DNA of 64,000 nt from Verrucomicrobiota bacterium (GTDB lineage: Bacteria > Verrucomicrobiota > Verrucomicrobiia > Limisphaerales > AAA164-E04). The stretch is taken from positions 2,464,001 through 2,528,000 of the forward strand of contig CP170459.1 in the NCBI GenBank assembly GCA_047947115.1, written 5' to 3'. The notes beneath the pieces are model-generated. The model saw nothing but the letters and a program-made list of their open reading frames with translations, made no database searches and was not told the origin of the DNA. Both the position numbers and the translations under genes were made by a program. Shown here piece after piece: positions 1-31,413 of this stretch; positions within the stretch are counted from its first letter, which is position 1, and the number at the start of each line of letters is the position of its first letter.

Positions 1-54
1 AAAATCTTGCGAGGGGAAAGAAATCTGACTGTTGAACACATCCGCTTTTCTTGA
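1..54 (+). pseudogene. 3' end of a HigA-like antitoxin paralog, C-terminally truncated and cut by the window edge
   Basis: Frame 1 reads KILRGERNLTVEHIRFS*, matching KILRGERNLTVEHIRFL in the 1678-2112 protein; DNA 1-45 is near-identical to ~2019-2063. Confidence 0.75.
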
Positions 55-96
55 TGAAGAGTGAGACGTATTGAGAATGTGCAACAGTTGCTGCAG

Positions 97-113
97 TGTG
101 CGGTTTTGTGCGG
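97..113. repeat. TGTGCGG direct-repeat pair, putative integrase arm-type site (element C)
   Basis: tgtgcgg-ttt-tgtgcgg; same motif at 1152-1168 and a variant at 2221-2238. Confidence 0.6.
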
Positions 114-193
114 CAAGCTGATAATTTGGCCGCTTTACTTGGATGATTTTTTGAGTGTTGAATAAAGTTGGTGAGTTAGGCCATTGTTGGATT

Positions 194-388
194 GTGTCAA
201 AAATAAGGTCATTCAGAATTTATTCAAGCTTGGCAGAGGAGAACCAAGCCGAGTATCGGCGTCGGTCCCGGATGTCTCCTCAAGAACGAATGAATGAATT
301 TGCCGTTCTTCAAGAACGTGCCTGGGGGAATGATTGGAGGACCAAGCCAATGGACCGAATAGCAACTTGGGAAAAGGTGGATTGGTAG
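194..388 (+). CDS. Small hypothetical protein, partner of the downstream nucleotidyltransferase
   Basis: GTG at 194, in frame with ORF 155-388; contains SLAEENQAEY...MSPQER; stops 3 nt before the NTase start. Confidence 0.55.
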   Translation: MSKIRSFRIYSSLAEENQAEYRRRSRMSPQERMNEFAVLQERAWGNDWRTKPMDRIATWEKVDW

Positions 389-391
389 GGT

Positions 392-868
392 ATGACCACG
401 TTGACCGAAGATATGGTCGAGTTCTTGGGGTTGCTCAAAAAGCACGGTGTGGAGTTCGTTTTGGTGGGCGGTCATGCTGTGAATTATTATGGATACGTGC
501 GGACAACTCAGGATATTGACCTACTCATTTACCCTTCTCCGAAAAATGCTCAGTGCATGATGGCTGCTCTAAGCGATTTTGGATTCGGAGACGCTGGAAT
601 TCCGGTGTCACTTTTTGAATCGACAGGAAGTGCCATTCATCTGGGTAATGAACCCAACCGCATTGATTTACTGACAGCGCTGAAGGGGATGAGCAATGAG
701 CAGATATTCAAAAACAAAAAGCGCATACACTTGGGTTCATTGGAACTGGATATTATCGATTTAAATGACCTGCTCCAGATTAAGCGGCAATCAAGCCCTC
801 TCAAAGATCAGGCTGATGCAGAAGAGATTGAAATATCAAAACCTGATGGAGACTCATATGATAGATGA
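392..868 (+). CDS. Minimal nucleotidyltransferase (Pol-beta superfamily)
   Basis: FVLVGGHAV...YGYVRTTQDIDLL (GG and DxD motifs), RIDLL, C-terminal KDQAD. Confidence 0.8.
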   Translation: MTTLTEDMVEFLGLLKKHGVEFVLVGGHAVNYYGYVRTTQDIDLLIYPSPKNAQCMMAALSDFGFGDAGIPVSLFESTGSAIHLGNEPNRIDLLTALKGMSNEQIFKNKKRIHLGSLELDIIDLNDLLQIKRQSSPLKDQADAEEIEISKPDGDSYDR

Positions 869-931: not shown

Positions 932-1034
932 GTTAGATCTAACTTGTTTATGGGTACAGCCCGCCTCCGCTTAAAGCTCCGGCGAGGCAACTTTCGCGGT
1001 GAGAAAGTTGGTGGAGGCGTCGGGAGTTGAACCC
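932..1034. repeat. ~100-bp att-arm repeat, copy 1 (two hairpins plus ssrA 3' core at 1009-1034)
   Basis: Aligns with ~2250-2351; core tggtggaggcgtcgggagttgaaccc differs from ssrA 31055-31080 at one base. Confidence 0.85.
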
Positions 1035-1336
1035 TATAAGACCTTTCAAGACGAAGTATCCTTCCTTCGCATCCTTGCATGACTACAACACCTTACACGT
1101 TCATTCTCCAAAATCCACCATGCACCGTCTTGAACCATCATGAAAAAAATCTGTGCGGTTTTGTGCGGCAAATTTGGGAAGCTTTGGTTCAGATAGATCC
1201 AACCAACAGTTTTCGGTAAATTCTTATATGAGTGATCAAATGTTTGTTGGCGGGATCAAATCCATCTATTTGATTCGTCATTACTGATTCTCACTCGGGG
1301 AAGTCAAACATTGGCGAATTGGCGAATAGTCCAATA

Positions 1337-1369
1337 TTGACTTTGAGATGAATGCGGGACAAATTGTCC
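1337..1369 (+). promoter_or_regulatory. Putative higBA promoter and operator
   Basis: TTGACT (1337-1342), 17-nt spacer, weak -10 CAAATT overlapped by the perfect palindrome GGACAA-A-TTGTCC (1357-1369), 3 nt before the TTG start. Confidence 0.5.
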
Positions 1370-1372
1370 TTG

Positions 1373-1681
1373 TTGAGGATCATAACGGAAAAAGCACTCA
1401 AGGAATGGTCGTTGAAGCATGCCCGTGCGAAAGTATCTCTCGCAAACTGGGTTCGTGTCGTGAAACGCTCAAGTTGGAATACTTTGGTCGACATTCGTGC
1501 CACCTTTCCTTCAGCCGATCAGATATCTGTAGGCAGCGGACGGTCCGTCATCATCTTCAATATTGCCGGTAATCAATTTCGGCTTGTTTGTGCGGTGCAT
1601 TTTAGAACGAAAATGGTATTCGCTTTGAAATTTATGACACATTCAGAATACGACAAAATGTCTTGGAAGAACGAACTATGA
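1373..1681 (+). CDS. higB: HigB family mRNA interferase toxin (RelE superfamily)
   Basis: RIITEKALKEW...DIRATFPSAD...IFNIAGNQFRLV...FMTHSEYDK; toxin-first order; ATGA overlap with the antitoxin. Start is TTG 1373 or ATG 1352. Confidence 0.9.
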   Translation: MRIITEKALKEWSLKHARAKVSLANWVRVVKRSSWNTLVDIRATFPSADQISVGSGRSVIIFNIAGNQFRLVCAVHFRTKMVFALKFMTHSEYDKMSWKNEL

Positions 1682-2112
1682 AAACTCAGACAGCAACCAA
1701 GGTGCGAGCCTTTAATTCTGTTCCCAAGGATTATTCCTGCCTTTGTTCCGGATATCTTCCGCGTCCCATTCATGATGATCATGAATACGCTGAGGCCCAA
1801 AAAGCCATATTCGAATTGGTAGGTTTTGAAGAACAGTTAACTCCGGATCAAACTGACTATTTGGAGGCAGTTAGTACGTTCATTGAGCAATATGATCAGC
1901 AAACGGTAAGCTGGTCTAGGAGAAATCCGAAGTCCATCCTGAAGTATCTCATGGCAGAGCACGGTATGAGTGGTGCCGACCTGGCAAGATCTCTTGGCAT
2001 GAACGAATCGATGGGAGGCAAAATTTTGCGAGGGGAAAGAAATCTGACTGTTGAACACATTCGTTTTTTATCAAGCAAGTTTTCTGTTAGCCCTGAGCTC
2101 TTTATTGCCTGA
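1678..2112 (+). CDS. higA: HigA family HTH antitoxin
   Basis: PRPIHDDHEY...DYLEAVSTFIEQYD...LKYLMAEHGMSGADLA...ILRGERNLTVEHIRFLSSKFSVSPELF. Confidence 0.9.
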   Translation: MKTQTATKVRAFNSVPKDYSCLCSGYLPRPIHDDHEYAEAQKAIFELVGFEEQLTPDQTDYLEAVSTFIEQYDQQTVSWSRRNPKSILKYLMAEHGMSGADLARSLGMNESMGGKILRGERNLTVEHIRFLSSKFSVSPELFIA

Positions 2113-2249
2113 GATCAGTTCTATTGAAAAAAGCTCCATAAACTTAAAATTGAGTAAGAATTCATCCGCTTTTCTTTATGATGAATGAGATAGATTGAGT
2201 ATGTGTAACAGTAGCAGGAGTGTGTGGTTTTTGTGCGGCAAGGTGAGTG

Positions 2250-2351
2250 ATTTGATCTAACTCGTTGATGGATACAGCCCGCCTTCGCTTTAAGCTGCGG
2301 CGAGGCAAATTTCGCGGTGCGAAAGTTGGTGGAGGCGGCGGGAGTTGAACC
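2250..2351. repeat. ~100-bp att-arm repeat, copy 2, including the 25-bp att core (2327-2351)
   Basis: tggtggaggcggcgggagttgaacc is identical to 31055-31079; IHF-like ATCAA-N4-TTA on the minus strand at 2258-2269. Confidence 0.9.
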
Positions 2352-2472
2352 TGCTGCTTCGTGTTCGTTAACATTCGGGATGACGCACATTACTTTCTTT
2401 TTTACAACGTATTATGATTGTTTTCCTTAAAAGCCAGCACGAACCATTACGCAGTAAACGCGAAACATTTCG

Positions 2473-9070: not shown

Positions 9071-12000
9071 TCATTCCGTGAAAAGGATCTGGCCCCAGTT
9101 CTTCGGTTCCATCTTCAGCTCGAAGACTTCATCGTTCACCAGCCCGGTTGCCTGGTTGTTCCAGTAGGTGCGGAGGAGGGTATCGTCGCCGGCGGGCGTG
9201 CCGTGGGTGGCCCCGAAATCGCCGGAGAGCTTCATCCCTGCGAAAGGCTTCAGGCCAAGCGTGGAGAGGGGCACCCCGATCTCGACCACGCACCACCGAT
9301 CGCCCTTCTTTACCTCGATCTTCGCGTCCTGCAGCTCCACGACGCTGTCCATCACGTAATTGCTGACCACGCCGGAGCTGAAGGTCCTGGGGTTCTTCTG
9401 CTCGGCGATCTTGCGATACAGCACCGCCGTCGGCTTGCCCCGGAAATTTCCGATGGAGAGGCGGAGATCGCCCTTGGCCGCCTCGGCGCGGTTCTCATCG
9501 GCCTCGGGATCGGTGCCGAGCTGGAAATCCACCGTATCGCCCCGGGCGTACATGAATACCGGCGAGTCCGCACCGTTGGTCCACGGCGTCGCATCCGCCA
9601 CGCGCCAGCCGAGGTAAAGAAAGGTTTCGTCCCAGGCAATGGCCGATCGGACTTCGGCATCATCCTGTTTCTTGAAAACGATTTCCTTGCCAAAATCCTT
9701 CGCAAGATCGCCCGTGAAGACCGGCGTCTGCTTCCGGACCTCGCAGCGGCGCAGGCCGGCGCTGCGCTGCACCAGCTCGCTGCGAATCGCCTCGGCGAGC
9801 TTCAGGTCTTTCTCCTCGAGGCGGAGCGTGCCGGAGCCGAGCGGCTTGACGGTTTCGAGACCGACGACTTCGACATTCCAGTTCGCAGTCTTGCCGGCGG
9901 TCACGTAGAGCTTGCCGTCCTTGCCCTGGGTGATGCTGCCGCCGAAATCCTCGCCCCCTTCGCCGGACGGCACGTGATCGAGCACTGCCCCCGGCACTGC
10001 CCTTTCGGGCCATTGCACTTTCGAGAAGTCGCCCTGGAACAGGCGCGTCAGGTAGAACCCGTCGCGCGTGAGCATGTGCCACTCGCCGACGTTCGAGTTG
10101 ATCACCCACGCGCTGCCGACGGGATCGGGCAACGTGACGCTGCCCACGGTGCCGAAGGCCCCGCGGATGAGGCCGGCCTGCGGCCCCGGTGCGTTGTGCG
10201 AGCCGTGCACGCCATGGAACGTGTTCGGATAGCTCCACCGCAGCTTGCCGGAGGCCACGTCGTAGCAGTTGAAGAGCTGCTTCTCGGAGTCGCACGATAG
10301 CACGAGGTCGTTAGCTGGCGACGGCATCGGCCCTTCGAGAGGAGGCAGGAAGTGCAGGTTCGTGGTGTCCCACTTCGGGGCGCCGGAGGGAGTGAAGCCG
10401 GCCAGCCTGATGCGGGCGCCACGGTCCCACCGGTTGGCCTTCGGGTCGAGCACGCCCGCGTAGAGCGTGAGGTCGGTGTTCAGCCCCAACGACCAGTTGA
10501 GGTAGCCATTGAACGACATCAGCATCGGCACCACGGTCTTCTCCCCGTCCTGCTTCTGCTGGTCGCCGTTCTCATCGGACCAGAACACGGTGGTCTTGTC
10601 CTTGTCGTTGCGGCCGAAGGTCGCCCGGAGGGCGTAGGCGCCGTCGCCGAGGCGTTCCCAGACGTGCGTGTCGGTGCCGAGCGTGGCCGCGAGGTAGAGC
10701 TTGCCATTCGTGCCGCGGCAGAAGCGGGCGAAGTTGTGGAACAGGCTGTTCCAGTCCCGGCCCTCTCCGTTCTCAAAGGTGCCGAGGCATTGGGCAAGCC
10801 CGGTGGCGGGATCGAGCCGCCATTCGCAGGCTTCGCCGACCATCAGGTTCGGATCGTCCGGGTTGATCGCTCCGCCGCTGGCACCATAGTGAGTGGAGCC
10901 GAAGAACTCGCGGACGAACGTGCCGGTCTGGTTGTTCCACACGCTGAACCGTTTTGGGAAGAAACCGGCTTCAGCCACCCACAGGTTTCCTTCACGGTCA
11001 ACTGCCAGTCCGTGGATGTTGATCATACCCTCCTTGACCCAGGGCCCGGTGCGAGGCCTGCCGCCCTGCTTCCCGATCGCCAGGGCAGGCTTGCCGTCGG
11101 GCGTAAACACCTTGATCTGCGCGCTCGGCTCGCCTTCGCCCACATAGATTCGACCGCCAGCATCGACCGCAAGGCACTTGGCGTCGATCAGTCGGGTCAG
11201 CACCGGCTTTACCGCGCCGGTTGCGGGGTCCACGGCGGCCACCGAATCGGTGCCGGAAAGGACGTAGAGGAGCGAGTCGCTCACCGCGGCGATGCCGCTG
11301 GGCGCGGGCACGGGGATGGTCTTGAGCACTTTGCCGTTCTCTGCGTCGAGTACGGCGACGAAATCGCTTTTCATAACGGCAACTTCCTGCGGGAAGGAAG
11401 CCTCGATCTTGCGGCGCACCGCGGCCTGCAGCTTCAGCGAAGCCATTTCGGCCCCGCCGTCGACGAGCGTCTTGTCGTTGAGCATGCCGTTGATGGTCCC
11501 GGCAACGGCGTCGCGGACGTCCGGCGTGTAGTAGTTGGGCGCAGCGAGCGCCTTGTCTTCCGGCTCGGTGCCAGCCAGCCAGGCTGCGGCACGCTCGCGG
11601 ACGTTCTTGTCGACCTTCTCCCAGATCGCCTTGCCGATACCGTCGCCCGCGGCGGAGAGCTTGGTGAGGAACGCGCGCCAATTGGTTACATCGCTCCTGC
11701 GGAAATTGTAGGAGCGGAAGGTGAGGTAGAGTTTGCCGTTGCGGGCCGCCATCGCCTCAGCCTTGTCGGGCATGCCGGGCTGGTCCTTCCAGAGATCCTT
11801 CACGAAGAGATCTCTGAATCCGCCATCGTTTGCGTCGTCCCAGTTCTGATAGGAGCCGGTGGCAGTGTCGAGGCGGAAGAGCACCTGCGGGCTGCCGGAG
11901 CTGTTGCCGACATAGACGAGGTCGCCCTCAACTGCCAGCAGTTCGGCGCCGCCGAAGCCGCCGTATTTGTGTTTCCAGCGGACGTTGCCGTCGAGGTCGC

Positions 12001-13201
12001 AGGCGAGCAGGCCGCGGCCGGCCTCGGCGGCTCCCCAGCCAAGGTAAACGGAATCGCCTTGTGCGGCACTGGTCCAGGGCACGCCGAGGTCGCCGCCCCA
12101 GTTCGAGGTGGGGCCGCTGTGCCAGGGTGCGTTGCCGCTGTTGCCCGCCCAGCCTCGCAGGCGCAGGCCGATGCCCGTGTGCCAGATGGCCTGCCAGGTG
12201 TAGTCGCCGGCGGGCAGCACCGCGCCGGGCGTGCGCCAGATCGGCGTGGCCAGGCCGTCCCACGTCACCGTGTGCTCGCCCTTGGCCATCGGCTCGGCAT
12301 TGAGGAGATTCCGCACCACGACGCCGTCGGCGTTGCGGAGGAGCATCGATACGTAGCCGTCCTCGGGCATGGTGAACTTGATCGGCTTGAAGCCCTTCGG
12401 CCCCTCGCTGAGGGCTGACCAGTCAACCACCGGCTGACCTTGCTGCAGCGACACCGGCAACTTGCGGCCGTCGGCCAGGTGCAGCATCCGGGGCTTCATC
12501 TTCCCGGAGCGCTCGAAGGTCGCCGGGCCGAACTGGTCGAGCTTGCGCGTGCCCCAATAGGTACGTTCCGGCACCACTCCGGGCATGAAACAGTCCCATG
12601 CATGCAGACTCCAGCCAAACGGGAGGACGAACATCACTCTAATCTCGCTGCCGGGTCCGAGGGTGACACCTTCGCTTGTAATCATCTTCAGGGGAATCCG
12701 GATCTCCTGCGTATAGCCTTTGCCGTCCGGGTTGTTGAGAAACACCTGCTCCGCGCCCATCTGCTTCGGGTCACGCGCGCTCTGAAGAGGTGGCTCGAAA
12801 TTGAGCGTGATCGATTCCTTCCCGTCCAGGTCGCGCCCGCAGGTCAGGTTGGGCTGAAGCTGCTGCGGTGTGCCGGGCGCCGTGAGCATGTGCATCCGCA
12901 GCGTGCTGCCGGCGGGGCGTCGGTCGTTATGACGGAAGCTGCCTGTGACGCGCGCAAGCACGTAGAGATTATCCTGGTCGTACATCGCATGAAGCCACGC
13001 GCTGTGGCGGTCACGCTGCTCCTCCACGTTCTCGCAGGCGAAGATGCCACCGGTGAGGTCCCAGTCGTCGAATCTGCCGTCGATGACGACCTTGCCCGGC
13101 GCCGGCAACACGGAAATGCCGTAGTTCTCGGTTTGCGTGCCCGCAAATGCGGGCATCGCAAGCAGGCCGCAGACGGTGAGGAGGTTGAAAATAGTTTTCA
13201 T
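9071..13201 (-). CDS. Large secreted protein: CBM9/DOMON-like, FlgD-Ig-like, NHL/beta-propeller, CBM9-like (paralog 1)
   Basis: IDGRFDDW, MPEDGYVSMLLRNADGVVVRNLL...WDG, NHL-type LAVDREGNLWVAE; clear paralog of 23136-27266. Confidence 0.8.
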   Translation of the reverse strand: MKTIFNLLTVCGLLAMPAFAGTQTENYGISVLPAPGKVVIDGRFDDWDLTGGIFACENVEEQRDRHSAWLHAMYDQDNLYVLARVTGSFRHNDRRPAGSTLRMHMLTAPGTPQQLQPNLTCGRDLDGKESITLNFEPPLQSARDPKQMGAEQVFLNNPDGKGYTQEIRIPLKMITSEGVTLGPGSEIRVMFVLPFGWSLHAWDCFMPGVVPERTYWGTRKLDQFGPATFERSGKMKPRMLHLADGRKLPVSLQQGQPVVDWSALSEGPKGFKPIKFTMPEDGYVSMLLRNADGVVVRNLLNAEPMAKGEHTVTWDGLATPIWRTPGAVLPAGDYTWQAIWHTGIGLRLRGWAGNSGNAPWHSGPTSNWGGDLGVPWTSAAQGDSVYLGWGAAEAGRGLLACDLDGNVRWKHKYGGFGGAELLAVEGDLVYVGNSSGSPQVLFRLDTATGSYQNWDDANDGGFRDLFVKDLWKDQPGMPDKAEAMAARNGKLYLTFRSYNFRRSDVTNWRAFLTKLSAAGDGIGKAIWEKVDKNVRERAAAWLAGTEPEDKALAAPNYYTPDVRDAVAGTINGMLNDKTLVDGGAEMASLKLQAAVRRKIEASFPQEVAVMKSDFVAVLDAENGKVLKTIPVPAPSGIAAVSDSLLYVLSGTDSVAAVDPATGAVKPVLTRLIDAKCLAVDAGGRIYVGEGEPSAQIKVFTPDGKPALAIGKQGGRPRTGPWVKEGMINIHGLAVDREGNLWVAEAGFFPKRFSVWNNQTGTFVREFFGSTHYGASGGAINPDDPNLMVGEACEWRLDPATGLAQCLGTFENGEGRDWNSLFHNFARFCRGTNGKLYLAATLGTDTHVWERLGDGAYALRATFGRNDKDKTTVFWSDENGDQQKQDGEKTVVPMLMSFNGYLNWSLGLNTDLTLYAGVLDPKANRWDRGARIRLAGFTPSGAPKWDTTNLHFLPPLEGPMPSPANDLVLSCDSEKQLFNCYDVASGKLRWSYPNTFHGVHGSHNAPGPQAGLIRGAFGTVGSVTLPDPVGSAWVINSNVGEWHMLTRDGFYLTRLFQGDFSKVQWPERAVPGAVLDHVPSGEGGEDFGGSITQGKDGKLYVTAGKTANWNVEVVGLETVKPLGSGTLRLEEKDLKLAEAIRSELVQRSAGLRRCEVRKQTPVFTGDLAKDFGKEIVFKKQDDAEVRSAIAWDETFLYLGWRVADATPWTNGADSPVFMYARGDTVDFQLGTDPEADENRAEAAKGDLRLSIGNFRGKPTAVLYRKIAEQKNPRTFSSGVVSNYVMDSVVELQDAKIEVKKGDRWCVVEIGVPLSTLGLKPFAGMKLSGDFGATHGTPAGDDTLLRTYWNNQATGLVNDEVFELKMEPKNWGQILFTE

Positions 13202-13224
13202 AGAAGGTCTCACTGAGTTATGAA

Positions 13225-23135: not shown

Positions 23136-26100
23136 TCACGGCTGGAACGTGATCTCGCCCCAGTTCGCCGGTTCCATTTTCAGCTCGAAGACTTCGTCGT
23201 TGACGATGCCCGTGGCCTGGTTGTTCCAGTGGGTGCGCAGGGCGGTGTCGGTTCCGGATTTGTCGCCGTGTGTGGCGCCAAAGTCGCCGCGCAGCGCCAA
23301 GCCGTCCGTGACTTTCAGCCCGAGCGCCGCCAGCGGAATCGCGGATTCGACCACGTAGCGCTTGTCCTCCACCTTCACGGATACCTTGGCCTCGGCCAGC
23401 ACCTCAACGCTGTCCATCACGTATTCCTTCACGACGCCGGAGCTGAAGGTCTTGGGCTTCTTCTCGTCCGCGACCTTGCGATAGACCACGGCCGTGGGCT
23501 GGCCTTTGAAGTTGCCGATGGACAGGCGCAGGTCGCCCTTCACGGGTTCGCCGCGTTTCTTGTCGGCTGCGGGGTCGGTCCCGAGCTGCAGGTCCACGGT
23601 GTCGCCGCGGGCGTAGAGGAACTCGGGCGCGTCCGCGCCGTTGACCCACGGCGTGTCGTCCTCCACCTCCCAGCCGACGTAGAGGTTGGCCTCATCCCGG
23701 GCCATGGCGACCCGGACCCGCGTGCCCGCCTGCTTCTCGAACGCCTGCTTCTCGGGTTCCTCGAAGTCCTTGAAGTCTGCGTCAAGGTTCCCGGTGAACG
23801 CCACCGTGGCCTTCTGGACCATGTACTTCTTGTTGCCTTCCGCGACCTGCAACTGCTTCTCGCGAAACGTCTGGGCCGTCTTCACGTCGTCGGCGCCCAT
23901 CGCCACCTTGCCGCCGGGGATCTCCTGGATCGTCTCCAGTCCTGTGACCTCGATATTCCAGAGCCCGGTCTTGCCGGCCTGGATGTAGACCTTGCCGTCC
24001 TTGCCCTGGCGCAGGGAGCCGCCGAAATCCTCGCCGCCGAGGCCCGGGGGCACGTTGTCGAGGATGGCGCCCGGCACCGCCTGGTCCGGCCACTGGGTCT
24101 TGAACGCGTCGCCCTGGAAGAGGCGCGTGAGGTAGAAGCCGTCCTCGGTCAGCACATGCCACTCGCCGATGTTGCCGTTGATGCCCCAGATGCCGCCGAC
24201 CGGCTTGGGCAGCACCGCGTTGCCGACCAGTCCGAAGGCGCCCCGGATGAGGCCGACCTCCGGCGCTGGCGCCTTATGCGAGCCATGCACGCCGGAGAAG
24301 GTGTTGGGGTACTTCCAGAGCAGGCGTCCGTCGACCGTGTCGTAGCACTCGAAGTTTTGTTCACCCACCGCGACCAGCTTGCGGTTGTCCGGTGTGGATA
24401 GCGCGCCGCCGTCAAAACCGGCAACCTTGCGGGGGCCGGCAACGTCATACCGGGGCGCGCCGCATTTCGTGAAGTCCGCAACCTTGAACTGCAGCCCGTT
24501 GGCGTAGAGGGTCAGATCGCTGTTCATGTTGAGCGACCAGTGCAGATAGCCGGTCATCGTCAGCGCCGCCGGATGCGTCGCCAGTTCGTCGGGCTGCTGC
24601 TGTTCGTCGCCGTTCGCGTCGGCCCAGAAGACCGTCTTCTTCTCTTTGGGGTTGGGTACGATGCTCCCGCGCAGCGCGAACTTCGCGTCGCCCAGCCGCT
24701 CGCGGATGGACAGGCCCGTGTTGCTACTGAATGTCACCAGGTAGAGCTTGCCGTTGCTGCCTTCGGCATAGCGGGCAACCCCGGCATAGTGGTTCTCGAA
24801 GGTCCCCAGGCAAACATCGCGCCCGGTGGCCGGGTCGATGCGCCACTCGCAGCCCTCCCCCGCCATGATGTTCGGGTCGCGCGGGTTGATCGCGCCACCA
24901 CTGGCGCCGTAGTGCGTGGGGCCGAAAAATTCCCTGAGGAAGGCGCCCTCTTTCTTGTCCGCCCCCGCCCGGGCCTGCCACACACTGAAGCGTTGCGGCG
25001 TCTGGTTCGCCTCGGCCACCCAGAGCTTGCCTTCCTTGTCCACCACCAGCCCCAGCGGATTAAGCACGCCGTCCTGGACAAATGCCCCGAGGGCCGGACG
25101 CCCGCCCTTGCGGCCGATCGCGCCGGCGGGCTTCCCGTCGGCGGTGAACACCAGCACCTGCTGGGTCTTGCCGCCCACGCTCACGTAGAGCCGGCCCTGG
25201 TCGTCGGCGGTCACGCCAGAGGCGTCCGGCAGGTCCTTGATCACGGTCTTCACGGTGCCGGCGGCGGGATCGACCGCCAGGATGTTGCGGCGATCGCTGA
25301 CCACATAGACCAGCGTGTCGTTCACGGCCCGCACGAAGCGGGGTTTATCCACATCGATGAGCTTGATGACCTTGCTGGTTTGCGCGTCCAGGACGGCAAG
25401 GAAGTTCATCTTCATCGGGGTCATGTCGGCCGCGAAGGCCTTCTCGATGAACCGGCGGTTCGCCTGGGCGAGGTCGTCCGGGGACAGCTTGGCGGCGTCG
25501 GGCACGAGCGTCGTGCTGTTGAGCAAACCGTTCAGGACGCTCACCACGTTGTCACGCACGTCCGGCGTGTAGTAATTCGGCGCACCGAGGGCTTCGTCGA
25601 TGCCGACTTGAGGGTTCTGGTCGAACCACCAGGTCAGGCGCTGTTTCTGCCAGTCGCCGAGCTTCTCGCGGATCGTCCTGGCGAGGCCGTCGTCTTTGTG
25701 GATCTTTTGAATCAGCGGTTTCCAGTCCCCCACGTCGGCGCGGCGGAAGGAGGCTGCCGAACAGGCGATGTAGAGCTTCCCGTTCCTGGCGTCCATGCCC
25801 TCGATGCGATCGGGCATGCCCGCGGGGTCCTCCCAGATGGCGCTGACCTGCAGATCGGGCGTGTCCTTGCCTTTCCAGGAACTGTAGTTGCCAGTCTTGG
25901 CGTCGAGCCGGTAGATCAGGTTGGCCCACTTGTTGACGTAAACAATGCCGCCGTCCACGCCCATGATCTCGGCGCCGCCCATGCCGCCGTGGGTGTGCTT
26001 CCATTGGACCTTGCCCTGCAGATCGCAGGCCACCACTGCTTTTCCGGCTTCCGCACCGGTCCAGCCGAGATAGACCTTTTCACCGTCGGTGGTGCAGGCG

Positions 26101-27266
26101 AACGGCACGCCGTGATCGCCGCCCCAGTTGGAGGTGAGCGAGCTGTCCCAGGGCGCGCTGCCGCCGTTGCTGGCCCAGCCGCGCAGGCGCAGGCCGATGC
26201 CCTTGTGCGCGATGGCCTTCCAGGTGAAATCGCCCGCCGCCACCGGCTGGCCGGGCGTGCGCCAGTAGGGGGTGGTCAGGCCGTCCCACTGGACCTCGTG
26301 CTCGCCCTTGGCGAAGAAGGCGCAGTTCAGAAGCTGGCGGGCGACCGAGCCATCGGGGGCAAAGAGGTTCAGCGACACGTAGCCGTCGAAGGGCATGGCG
26401 AAGCGGATCGGCTTGAACCCGGGCAGCTCCTTGCTCTGGACCAGCCCCGTCCAGTTCACGACCGGCAACCCTGCCTCCATCGTCACGGCGAACTCGCGGC
26501 CGTCGGAGAGACGGATGGACCGGGGCTGCAGCTTGCCCGTCTTCTCGAGTGTGGCATAACCCCAGCACGTTGGGCCCTGGAAGGTGAAGACGCGGTCGAT
26601 CTGCACGCCCGGCTTGAAGAGATCCTTCATGGTGATGCGGCCAGACTGGCCTGCCGTGAAGTTCGGCTCCACCGTCATGACCATCCGGGCACCGGGCTTG
26701 AGCGGCTGTTGGTCCGCGGTCAGCAGCTTCCAGGGAACGGCGATTTCCTGCACGTAACCCTTGCCGTCGGCATCCGCTGCGAACGTCTGCTGCGCGCCCT
26801 CCGCCCTGGTGTCGGGGATGCTGCCTTCGTTGAGCCCCTTGCCGAATTGGACGCTCACCACATCCCCGCCTTCGCGGTACTTCCAGCAGTCCCAATGGGC
26901 CGTGCGCTCCTTGCCCGCCGCGTCGGTCGTGACCGTGCGGAACTGCAGGCAGTCGCCCTGGAAGCCCATGTCGCCGTTCACCCCGGGGTTGTTGAGCGGG
27001 GTCGGATCCTTCCAGCGCGCCAGCACGTACAGGTTCTGACTGTCGTACATCACGTGGAACCATTGGCCGTACTGGTCGCGCAGATTCTCGACGTCGCTGC
27101 AGGCGAAAATCCCTCCGGTCAGATCCCAGTCATCGAACTTTCCGTCCACGACGACCTTGCCCGGCGCAGGCAGAATCTGCATGTTCAGGTTCTCGGTTTC
27201 GGTGGCCCGGGCGGCCGGAAGGGCGGCCAAGGCGAGAACGAGTGCGATCAGTATCTTGCTGTTCAT
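23136..27266 (-). CDS. Large secreted CBM9-like/FlgD-Ig/NHL protein (paralog 2)
   Basis: Same architecture and shared motifs as 9071-13201 (APNYYTPDVRD, THYGASGGAINP, WNNQATG.VNDEVFELKMEP). Confidence 0.8.
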   Translation of the reverse strand: MNSKILIALVLALAALPAARATETENLNMQILPAPGKVVVDGKFDDWDLTGGIFACSDVENLRDQYGQWFHVMYDSQNLYVLARWKDPTPLNNPGVNGDMGFQGDCLQFRTVTTDAAGKERTAHWDCWKYREGGDVVSVQFGKGLNEGSIPDTRAEGAQQTFAADADGKGYVQEIAVPWKLLTADQQPLKPGARMVMTVEPNFTAGQSGRITMKDLFKPGVQIDRVFTFQGPTCWGYATLEKTGKLQPRSIRLSDGREFAVTMEAGLPVVNWTGLVQSKELPGFKPIRFAMPFDGYVSLNLFAPDGSVARQLLNCAFFAKGEHEVQWDGLTTPYWRTPGQPVAAGDFTWKAIAHKGIGLRLRGWASNGGSAPWDSSLTSNWGGDHGVPFACTTDGEKVYLGWTGAEAGKAVVACDLQGKVQWKHTHGGMGGAEIMGVDGGIVYVNKWANLIYRLDAKTGNYSSWKGKDTPDLQVSAIWEDPAGMPDRIEGMDARNGKLYIACSAASFRRADVGDWKPLIQKIHKDDGLARTIREKLGDWQKQRLTWWFDQNPQVGIDEALGAPNYYTPDVRDNVVSVLNGLLNSTTLVPDAAKLSPDDLAQANRRFIEKAFAADMTPMKMNFLAVLDAQTSKVIKLIDVDKPRFVRAVNDTLVYVVSDRRNILAVDPAAGTVKTVIKDLPDASGVTADDQGRLYVSVGGKTQQVLVFTADGKPAGAIGRKGGRPALGAFVQDGVLNPLGLVVDKEGKLWVAEANQTPQRFSVWQARAGADKKEGAFLREFFGPTHYGASGGAINPRDPNIMAGEGCEWRIDPATGRDVCLGTFENHYAGVARYAEGSNGKLYLVTFSSNTGLSIRERLGDAKFALRGSIVPNPKEKKTVFWADANGDEQQQPDELATHPAALTMTGYLHWSLNMNSDLTLYANGLQFKVADFTKCGAPRYDVAGPRKVAGFDGGALSTPDNRKLVAVGEQNFECYDTVDGRLLWKYPNTFSGVHGSHKAPAPEVGLIRGAFGLVGNAVLPKPVGGIWGINGNIGEWHVLTEDGFYLTRLFQGDAFKTQWPDQAVPGAILDNVPPGLGGEDFGGSLRQGKDGKVYIQAGKTGLWNIEVTGLETIQEIPGGKVAMGADDVKTAQTFREKQLQVAEGNKKYMVQKATVAFTGNLDADFKDFEEPEKQAFEKQAGTRVRVAMARDEANLYVGWEVEDDTPWVNGADAPEFLYARGDTVDLQLGTDPAADKKRGEPVKGDLRLSIGNFKGQPTAVVYRKVADEKKPKTFSSGVVKEYVMDSVEVLAEAKVSVKVEDKRYVVESAIPLAALGLKVTDGLALRGDFGATHGDKSGTDTALRTHWNNQATGIVNDEVFELKMEPANWGEITFQP

Positions 27267-29743: not shown

Positions 29744-30949
29744 TTATTGATTGGCCGATGGAAAAATGTCAAACCACCTCTTGGCTTCATCTTTTCCAAC
29801 TAATTCTAGGTAATGCTGTTTGATTATTTGTACTGAGTTTCCTGATTCGTAGGCAACTTTGGGTAAGTCGGTTGTCATCGCAACCCGGTATGAAATGTAG
29901 CTATGCCTCAATGCATTGTGTTTCCATCTGAGGCGAGCAGAATTAGAGGTTCTCAAAAAGCATTTTGTTAACACGCTCTCCGATCGATTCCATATTTTTC
30001 CCGTGGTTTTCATATTGGGGGTTAACCATGCAGCCAAGTTTTCAGAAATCGGCACAACTCTTCGGGCTGCCGTTTTGGCAATACCATGGTCGATGGTTAT
30101 CATTCTGCGTTCGATATGCACATTTTCCCAATTCAAGCGCATGGTTTCAGCAGTGCGGATGCCACAAAAGGCTCCTAGAAGTAAAACAGGCAAGATTTGG
30201 GCATCCGCGTGTGTTAAGAGTGCTTGGATTTCTTCAGGTGAAAATATTTCTATTGATCCATGCACTTTTTTTCTAAGTGCGATTCGAGAGACTTCACTAT
30301 GGTCTTGCTGCAAATATCCGCGCGATTTTCCGAATTCAAAAAGAGTGAGAATACTTTGAAGGTAGTTGTTGTGACTGCGATTCGAAAGGTTCAGGTTGTT
30401 GAGAAACTCTTCAATATCCGCAGAGGTGATCGAGGTTATTTGGCACACAAATCGACTAGCAAATCGGCCGCACCTGGATCGAAGGTCCTTGAGATATTTC
30501 TCGCTTAAGCTTTGCTGCGCTTTTGCACTCAACATTTCTTCCAGCACATCTTGAACTGTCTTTTTGGGCAGTTCCGTTGGGTGATGTTTCAAGTAGAATT
30601 CAATAGCACTAGAAAGGGGGATACCTTGCAGCTTCCTAACAGCGTCCGAATATTCCTCTGCTACCACATCGAGCGGTTTTTGCACTTCTTTGATCGAGTT
30701 GCATGCACGCGTGTAGATGAGTTTACCAATGTTGTCTATGCTGGTAGACTGGGCCTCTCCTCGACTCAGTTCCGTTGCGATAGTCTCAGCTTCTGATTTA
30801 GCGCGTTTGAAGTCGGCAAATGCCTTGCGTTTGCGAGTTTTTCCAATACGCCAATCGACTGAGTAGACCTTGCCGGAATGTGTTAGGACTTGATAAATTT
30901 TGACAACGGTTCGAGATCGTTTGATCGAAACTGGAAACTTCACCTTCAC
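29744..30949 (-). CDS. Tyrosine recombinase/integrase
   Basis: GIRTAE (R), AKT (K), HNALRH (HxxR), GNS...HY (Y); AT-rich; next to the ssrA 3' end. Confidence 0.92.
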   Translation of the reverse strand: MKVKFPVSIKRSRTVVKIYQVLTHSGKVYSVDWRIGKTRKRKAFADFKRAKSEAETIATELSRGEAQSTSIDNIGKLIYTRACNSIKEVQKPLDVVAEEYSDAVRKLQGIPLSSAIEFYLKHHPTELPKKTVQDVLEEMLSAKAQQSLSEKYLKDLRSRCGRFASRFVCQITSITSADIEEFLNNLNLSNRSHNNYLQSILTLFEFGKSRGYLQQDHSEVSRIALRKKVHGSIEIFSPEEIQALLTHADAQILPVLLLGAFCGIRTAETMRLNWENVHIERRMITIDHGIAKTAARRVVPISENLAAWLTPNMKTTGKIWNRSESVLTKCFLRTSNSARLRWKHNALRHSYISYRVAMTTDLPKVAYESGNSVQIIKQHYLELVGKDEAKRWFDIFPSANQ

Positions 30950-30978
30950 TAGGTGAAGTGTAAGAGAATAGGAAGAAA

Positions 30979-30997
30979 TGTCAAGTATTTGTCAAGT
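30979..30997. repeat. TGTCAAGT direct-repeat pair, putative arm-type site (island A right end)
   Basis: tgtcaagt-att-tgtcaagt, between the integrase start and ssrA. Confidence 0.7.
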
Positions 30998-31054: not shown

Positions 31055-31413
31055 TGGTGGAGGCGGCGGGAGTTGAACCCGCGTCCTAAGCAAACTTGCC
31101 GTGAAGCTTCTACATGCTTGTCCGGGCATTGGGTGTCTGTGAAGTGATGACGACCCGGCGCGAGTCACTTCACATAGTCCGCATGAAATCAGTTTCGGTC
31201 CCTTGCGCGCGGTCTCCGCTCCGAACCTAACCTGCTGTCAGCGTTTCTTCCACCCAGCAGGTGTCAGCAGAGAAACGTCGCGGAGCTTTATGCCGCGAGA
31301 GCTAATTCATTGTTAGCATTTATTGCTATTGGTCCGATTTTTTACGAGGCCAACGAACCATCCTCGGCATGCTACCTCAGACGTATCTACCCAGTCGAAA
31401 CCAGTACGCCTCC
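31055..31413 (-). ncRNA. ssrA: tmRNA, tag ANNELALAA* (31288-31317)
   Basis: 5' GGAGGCGTACTGGTTTCGAC, GCATGCCGAGG...CCTCGT pseudoknot region, TAAAT|GCT resume context, 3' GACGCGGGTTCAACTCCCGCCGCCTCCACCA; 359 nt. Confidence 0.96.

Follow-up and report, generated by a model that had tools for sequence, protein, structure and literature searches.

Introduction

CIMEs are defined as elements that have lost their integration and transfer genes while keeping attL and attR, and a three-step model accounts for their accretion in tandem (PMC5704250). The CIMEs of Streptococcus (Pavlovic 2004, Bellanger 2011, as described in PMC5704250) belong here, and the same text documents cis-mobilisation of CIME-ICE tandems. 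For Dehalococcoides, fifteen ssrA islands that lack integration modules have been described (PMC3146451), and the composite island CGI48, described as stabilised by HipAB (PMC8978831), offers a precedent for a toxin-antitoxin (TA) pair that stabilises a composite tRNA island.

Here we analyse a 64,000-nucleotide stretch of a Verrucomicrobiota genome (G000; assembly GCA_047947115.1, contig CP170459.1, positions 2,464,001 to 2,528,000), hereafter the window, in which an initial annotation made from the letters alone had singled out a short att-flanked unit, here called B. With two att ends and one TA operon, a test substrate could hardly be smaller than B. The unit bears on the fate of tandem elements that have no integrase, which may be dead relics or may be set in motion again by visiting integrases, and on whether chromosomal TA clusters come from addiction filtering the decay of islands. 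We consider it probable that B is a CIME-type relic, a tyrosine-integrase island shrunk to its att ends and a HigBA pair.

Results

The 26-nt tmRNA 3' end occurs three times in the 6.08-Mb genome at one mismatch or fewer: within the gene that serves as integration target, tmRNA (ssrA; 31055-31413, minus strand), which is the sole tmRNA found by ARAGORN and Rfam; at 2327-2352 (minus strand), the junction of island A and unit B; and at 1009-1034 (minus strand), where a copy with one mismatch in the acceptor-stem part forms the distal, attR-type core of B. As there are copies only at the gene, 2327 and 1009, unit B spans 1,318 bp from core to core, and the att cores that the annotation had placed at its two ends are these tmRNA 3'-end copies. 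Outward from the tmRNA the order is island A, unit B, element C, an IS copy and a convergent tRNA-Arg. The GC content of B is 43%, versus 61% for island A. An assembly artefact is unlikely, since B and C differ by 9-17% and the module is also present in an independent assembly.

The arm-like TGTGYGG pairs read inside both ends of B are there as well, as CCGCACA pairs on the minus strand. The first, TGTGCGGTTTTGTGCGG at 1152-1168, lies 125-135 nt before the core in an attR/P-arm layout, and the second, TGTGTGGTTTTTGTGCGG (CCGCACA/CCACACA) at 2221-2238, lies 88/99 nt from its core. Five such pairs exist in the whole genome, at 97, 1152 and 2221 of the window and at both ends of the tRNA-Tyr island; for this 6.6-kb region, with its three pairs, 1,000 Markov resamples gave 0.001 on average. 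Beside the second pair, a non-coding segment at 2158-2220 is conserved in B, C and the copy of the sister species G001 (about 82%); in autonomous relatives the integrase starts at this point. The IHF-like site noted earlier is present at 2258-2270 (minus strand, 12/13 match to the consensus), also in the sister-species copy, but a single site is not above chance, since the window has 36 such matches and 31.1 +/- 6.0 would be expected. Directly after the core a double hairpin (REP-like) occupies 2277-2326; it recurs after the core at 1009, after the tmRNA in G007 and after three cores in G018. We rejected it as a general native tmRNA flank, as it is present in 1 of 13 tmRNA flanks inspected.

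To place these ends among those of other elements, we scanned 400 other genomes of the order with an order-wide pattern (two CCGCACA, 110-140 nt, GGTTCRA). There were ten matches in eight genomes and none for the reversed control, and all ten run into a tRNA-like ...CCA end that is absent from the query. The distal end of B fits this layout, with arms at -135/-125. The annotation had suggested looking for an integrase next to TGTGCGG/CCGCACA pairs, and such genes were found in other islands, with CCGCACA arms directly before them, at tRNA-Tyr (G000, G004), tRNA-Leu (G373) and tmRNA (G175); the tmRNA island of G175 measures 10.8 kb, and its integrase is frameshifted and split over two frames. 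Because the combination of arms and tRNA end is common to integrase-type islands in 8 of the 400 genomes, the ends of B are, judged by sequence, real att-type ends and belong to a real tyrosine-integrase element family. The tRNA-Tyr island of G000 (G000:C1:341637-355704) is 14 kb long, has a whole duplicated tRNA and CCGCACA arms at both ends, and also carries a copy of the tRNA-SeC integrase (94%) that is truncated at its 5' end.

The retention of both arm pairs and both cores is also what would be expected if B were a live non-autonomous cassette, which a visiting CCGCACA/tmRNA integrase together with an excisionase would release as a 1,318-bp circle and reinsert at the tmRNA end, so that TA cassettes would be stacked and re-ordered as in an integron, via double-stranded att sites. 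We regard this as possible but rather unlikely. Against it stands the position of the tmRNA-side arms, at +88/+99 in B versus +34/+45 in three autonomous CCGCACA elements and +46 in a fourth; the extra 54 nt between core and arms are largely the double hairpin and amount to about five helical turns, a spacing at which the ends might still function. No B-like DNA was found in plasmids or phages searched with B, or in viral contigs searched with HigA. A scan of viral contigs for arm pair plus core gave 14 matches, one of them a plausible att with an integrase and none at tmRNA, and a scan of metagenomes for arm pair plus tmRNA core, with a pattern that proved too loose, gave no relative of B; a tmRNA-type core was seen in 2 of its 83 matches, both at one unrelated type of locus.

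B has no integrase, as had been reported: the 14 resident integrases, used as tblastn queries, matched nothing in the region at E<1. Over the six frames of B, a local integrase HMM reached E>=0.8 at best, versus 1e-117 for the control. The annotation had held that homologues found only as full-size islands, together with a visible integrase scar, would point to simple decay. Neither a scar nor a full-size element bearing the end sequences of B itself was found, so for the relic that we favour we infer a parent rather than see one.

The next candidates are the enzymes resident in G000, where none of the 14 PF00589 matches unites B's arm motif with B's core, a further point against a live cassette. 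Island A, the tmRNA-proximal member of the array (2353-31054, 28.7 kb), encodes a tyrosine integrase at 29744-30991 (minus strand; open frame, PF00589), and it is conceivable, if improbable, that B was moved by this enzyme, alone or as an A+B composite, or by that of the tRNA-Tyr island. The integrase of A serves the same tmRNA core, and cis-mobilisation of CIME-ICE tandems provides a precedent (PMC5704250). Yet its arms are CTTGACA pairs (2473-2489 and 30979-30996), only 4/7 like CCGCACA, and in a tree of 21 integrase rows it falls outside the supported (95/97) CCGCACA clade. That tree took frames of at least 280 aa and left out the broken G175 integrase, and therefore cannot place a tmRNA-specific CCGCACA integrase. 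The tRNA-Tyr island has the CCGCACA pairs at both ends, but the core that its integrase uses is another one, and comparison with the G004 orthologue puts the first ATG of this integrase out of frame. By analogy with lambda-type integrases, mobilisation of B would need a visiting integrase or relaxed arm recognition. Island A also holds two large paralogous genes (window 9071-13213 and about 23150-27200; 72-82% DNA identity), 14 kb apart among carbohydrate-active-enzyme-like cargo.

On its other side B adjoins element C, whose start lies some 480 nt outside the window. The annotation had called C a sister of B, and it is a real but decayed relative, 83-91% alike across the shared parts and 91% over the higBA remnant. 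Its higB is truncated, its higA is cut by a microhomology deletion and its distal core is absent; the end that lies in the window (1-121, plus strand) consists of the decayed higA end and an arm pair (97-113). Between arms and core there is an insert of 807 nt, which puts the arms about 900 nt from the core; its cargo (155-868, plus strand) is a 77-aa ORF and a nucleotidyltransferase (DUF2204; weak AbiEii match), a pair that was sought in G001-G005 and not found. The tmRNA-proximal end of C (924-1008) is 88-89% like 2242-2326. Between tRNA-Arg(CCG) and C lies an IS element (G000:C1 about 2460760-2462290) that is 99.8% identical to a copy at 3754120 and that looks IS3-like from its ORFs.

The likeness of B and C might also reflect a local tandem duplication of the higBA region with a tmRNA-end fragment that was never integrative, and B, C and the G001 copy all lie 3-5 kb from tRNA-Arg(CCG). 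We think this very unlikely: the distal arm of B (1035-1168) is unmatched in C except for the arm pair and fits the order-wide attR layout, and the higA of B is far closer to that of G001 (3 differences) than to that of C (40 differences).

The cargo of B is the intact higBA pair reported at the outset. The toxin gene higB (1352-1681, plus strand) is an open frame that passes the Pfam HigB_toxin cut-off (PF09907, E 1e-23), and its product matches three solved mRNA interferase HigB relatives (PDB 5ycl/6kml/5ifg) at E of about 3e-10. The antitoxin gene higA (1678-2112, plus strand), also open and with a C-terminal HTH_3, overlaps the higB stop, which is the gene layout of type II HigBA systems, the HigB toxin gene being upstream of and overlapping the HTH antitoxin gene. 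A search of NCBIfam gave no family for HigB or HigA, and there is no third ORF within B. The palindrome seen before higB is an inverted repeat at 1301-1343, a putative operator from its sequence, and is significant as a fold (z -2.9, reached in 1 of 200 shuffles); a sigma-70 consensus promoter was looked for and not found. A motif, TTGGCGAATA...TATTGAC, is common to the upstream regions of higBA (window 1311-1340) and of an unrelated parDE at tRNA-Ser (G000:C1 about 5487570).

PADLOC matched HigB to PD-Lambda-2 A and HigA to the N-terminus of PD-Lambda-2 B, HigA (144 aa) matching only positions 5-118 of the 402 of PD-Lambda-2_B. PD-lambda-2, as described, requires a HigA-like domain fused to a peptidase plus a third gene (PMC9519451). 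We rejected B as such a system: its HigA is without the C-terminal peptidase fusion and the third component is absent. Because these parts are missing, an anti-phage role of B's HigBA, as the homology might suggest, is only a possibility.

A comparison of B DNA with 61 relatives matched the cargo in G001 alone, and a HigB scan of the genome collection (349 candidate stretches, close relatives) gave one hit, the same copy. Between B and G001, fourfold sites are changed at 2/47 positions in higB and 0/58 in higA (2/105 together), as against 23/70, 22/63 and 13/44 (58/177) in three neighbouring housekeeping genes, which we take from their translations to be rplI, ssb and rpsF; the G001 flanks are 84-86% identical to G000. 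Such a disparity implies that the module was exchanged long after the species split and points to recent lateral exchange of higBA between the sister species, as a live cassette would also lead one to expect. The tract of high identity (at least 55/60 per window of 60) is, however, confined to 1129-2148, inside the att cores, and identity drops to 28-32/60 at 1009-1128 and 33-50/60 at 2149-2328. Both cores are missing from the G001 copy, whose tmRNA-side end resembles that of B at only 79%. This pattern, which speaks against a live cassette, would result if related units had replaced one another's sequence by homologous recombination, or if the ends had been lost quickly; it is not evidence of att-mediated transfer. 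The G001 copy sits at a rearrangement point (G001:C54) whose flanks correspond to the tRNA-Arg side of G000 and to a region about 0.55 Mb off, beyond the tRNA-Met island, which suggests an inversion between two island hot spots.

A second array made of TA pairs lies at tRNA-Ser(GGA) (G000:C1:5483400-5487992). Its first unit is a 1,209-bp integrase-less parDE between the tRNA and a 3'-end copy, followed by an antitoxin+PIN_3 pair, an RHH-like+PIN pair and a second parDE. Each TA block ends in one CAGTAA arm pair, and in G000 the PIN gene of the RHH-like pair contains an internal stop. No integrase match was obtained in the tRNA-Ser loci of G000, G001 or G007. TA units similar to B, as the annotation had anticipated, thus do exist, in G000 and re-ordered in two sister species: the modules stand in different orders in G000, G001 (C69:1-3000) and G007 (C61), and three of them are 86-94% identical across species (the first parDE 78%), for comparison with genome flanks at 84-86% (G001) and 67-74% (G007). 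The re-ordering and the high identity of three modules would favour live cassettes, but several of the order swaps fall inside units, at a common antitoxin gene, as homologous recombination would give.

Arrays of integrase-less units also occur in a related genus (g3), where three genomes (G018, G020, G021) have 6-11 tmRNA-end copies each and 13 inter-core units without an integrase, of 1.1-15.3 kb, could be extracted (G018:C1 5580605-5603378, 3935334-3945075 and 6608727-6626667; G020:C94; G021:C478 and C129). They have a long distal end in common, in which a TTTGCCAA arm pair precedes the core by about 133 nt. Among the 23 cargo proteins scanned are TIR, SIR2-like, Shedu-like, IrrE peptidase, methyltransferase, kinase and relaxase domains, in part defence-like, and in an all-against-all comparison these units had no cargo in common. 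As their arms are not those of B, we regard them as analogues and not homologues; similar units were thus obtained, though with ends other than B's. G018 has 11 cores and eight integrase-less units, no PF00589 match inside its arrays, and two of its three arrays far from the tmRNA gene. In G021 an intact integrase lies directly behind the tmRNA (G021:C452:776-2026) with TTTGCCAA-like motifs before the gene, and is a candidate cognate enzyme for the g3 units by its sequence and position; as a query it found no orthologue in G018 or G020.

The eight units of G018, and the units of G021 with an integrase beside the tmRNA, are what live cassettes would produce; the different ends and the lack of common cargo weigh the other way where B is concerned. 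B, C and the G001 copy are all without an integrase, as are the tRNA-Ser array and the 13 g3 units, in which the ends are conserved. This counts against the relic reading, looking more like a reproducing family than like independent decay, and the clean absence of scars and the re-ordering of arrays likewise speak for a live cassette family.

Across the order, the tmRNA core was found in 209 of 301 sampled genomes, mostly in single copy, a count in which drafts may collapse repeats, and tmRNA-end arrays are patchy. About 80 higB matches were found in 63 of the 301 genomes. Of 29 other higB loci examined, six lie within 1.5 kb of a tRNA gene or an integrase, and none has B-like ends; in G060, G046 and G081 higB lies directly behind an integrase 34-37% like that of A, in G060 at tmRNA. 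TA pairs of this kind are thus ordinary cargo of autonomous islands, which favours the relic reading of B. Another of the six lies in G055 (C1), where a 3.5-kb unit between tRNA-Val and a 3'-end copy has a higBA homologue first and no integrase match. Two small tRNA-end duplications of 353 and 327 bp lie in G000 at tRNA-Met and tRNA-Thr (G000:C1:3010973-3011350 and 3758803-3759204), with one short ORF each, which we presume to resemble a GIY-YIG nuclease.

The annotation had likened B and C to integron cassettes. An ATCTAAC...GTTGAAC pair spans each junction, and G000 encodes at G000:C1:741177-742220 what we take, from reading the sequence, to be an IntI-like recombinase, unrelated to B, with short upstream segments that may be cassettes. 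In the strict sense the likeness failed, as did an attC reading of the B junctions: in a crude scan, other than IntegronFinder, the R boxes pair at 4/7 positions without a single-strand hairpin to join them, each junction consists of a tmRNA-end copy and arm-type repeats, and the intI-like gene is 1.7 Mb away. That B and C are cassettes (CALIN) served by this recombinase is scarcely credible.

Discussion

Our preferred reading, that B is what remains of an integrase island, would run as follows. An element with CCGCACA arms would have integrated at the tmRNA T-loop, in front of the older relative C, and the incoming island A would then have pushed B outward, with the integrase lost before or after B's arrival. 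B likely persists, while the TA-broken C decays, because loss of an intact HigBA would putatively poison the cell, and the same putative addiction likely explains why TA operons are the remainder in both arrays. Homologous recombination among related units would account, at least in part, for the movement of TA modules from species to species, and would make the arrays mosaic. B itself probably does not move at all, or is excised only on the rare occasion of a visit by a matching integrase. Decay products at hand, namely C and the core-less G001 copy, support such shrinkage, and B agrees with the definition of a CIME and with the model of accretion in three steps (PMC5704250).

We give tentative consideration, at odds with our own leaning, to a wider idea: that the genus might run an integron analogue on tRNA and tmRNA ends, in which TA-only, integrase-free cassettes (higBA, two parDE types, two PIN-type pairs and the nucleotidyltransferase pair) would be stacked behind tmRNA and tRNA-Ser. 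Visiting tyrosine integrases, reading an arm code specific to each cassette, would excise and re-order them, and exchange between species would make them a rotating repertoire for defence or addiction, the related genus doing likewise with defence-like cargo. Were such units live, they would give a phylum that has been little studied an integron-like means of gene exchange via double-stranded att sites. Such units escape island finders that require an integrase, and TA and defence cassettes at tRNA and tmRNA ends are consequently undercounted.

How, then, does B compare with what has been described? In literature consulted mainly as openly accessible main texts, we found no TA-only integrase-less tRNA/tmRNA units of such size, or arrays of them, in Verrucomicrobia. 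The annotation's view of an undescribed system is nonetheless not borne out, with CIMEs (PMC5704250) and ssrA islands lacking integration modules (PMC3146451) already published. Against integron TA cassettes and CALINs, as outlined in PMC4889954, the resemblance is one of outline, that is, recombinase-free TA units in re-orderable arrays, while B has no attC fold and no adjacent attI, Pc or intI, its sites being tmRNA-end cores plus arms. The Acinetobacter dif modules with higBA are likewise small, recombinase-free, TA-bearing and shuffled between related replicons, but are described as using XerC/D at plasmid pdif sites (PMC13141974), in contrast to the chromosomal tmRNA att site of B. E. coli/Shigella-type HigBA, described under PD-lambda-2, shares with B a HigB homologue and an Xre-HTH HigA (PMC9519451).

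Closer still are the islands of tRNA and tmRNA genes. In Islander islands (PMC4383910) and tycheposon arrays (bioRxiv 10.1101/2020.12.28.424599), as set out there, a target fragment marks the end, newcomers displace elders and remnants accumulate. Island A is a plain member of such tDNA-targeting tyrosine-integrase islands (PMC4383910). B has the tDNA fragment at its end but no on-board integrase, which Islander as described requires (PMC4383910), so that B is excluded by definition and units of its kind go uncounted. The Dehalococcoides ssrA islands are, like B, arranged in tandem with ssrA-end repeats, some without an integrase, and their cargo is younger than their ends, but there a serine recombinase (DsiB) and dehalogenase cargo are described (PMC3146451), whereas B has tyrosine-integrase arm sites and TA-only cargo in 1.3 kb.

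The closest match is with the CIMEs as PMC5704250 presents them. Like them, B is without integrase and transfer genes, keeps attL and attR at the sequence level (core and arms at both ends, with an atypical spacing on the tmRNA side), and stands in tandem with an integrase-bearing element, island A, at the 3' end of the target gene. It differs from them in its size of 1.3 kb, its TA-only cargo and a neighbouring integrase with a different arm motif, and this last difference makes cis-mobilisation of B doubtful. In sum, B is best regarded as a minimal, TA-only variant of an already described CIME-like or ssrA-island type.
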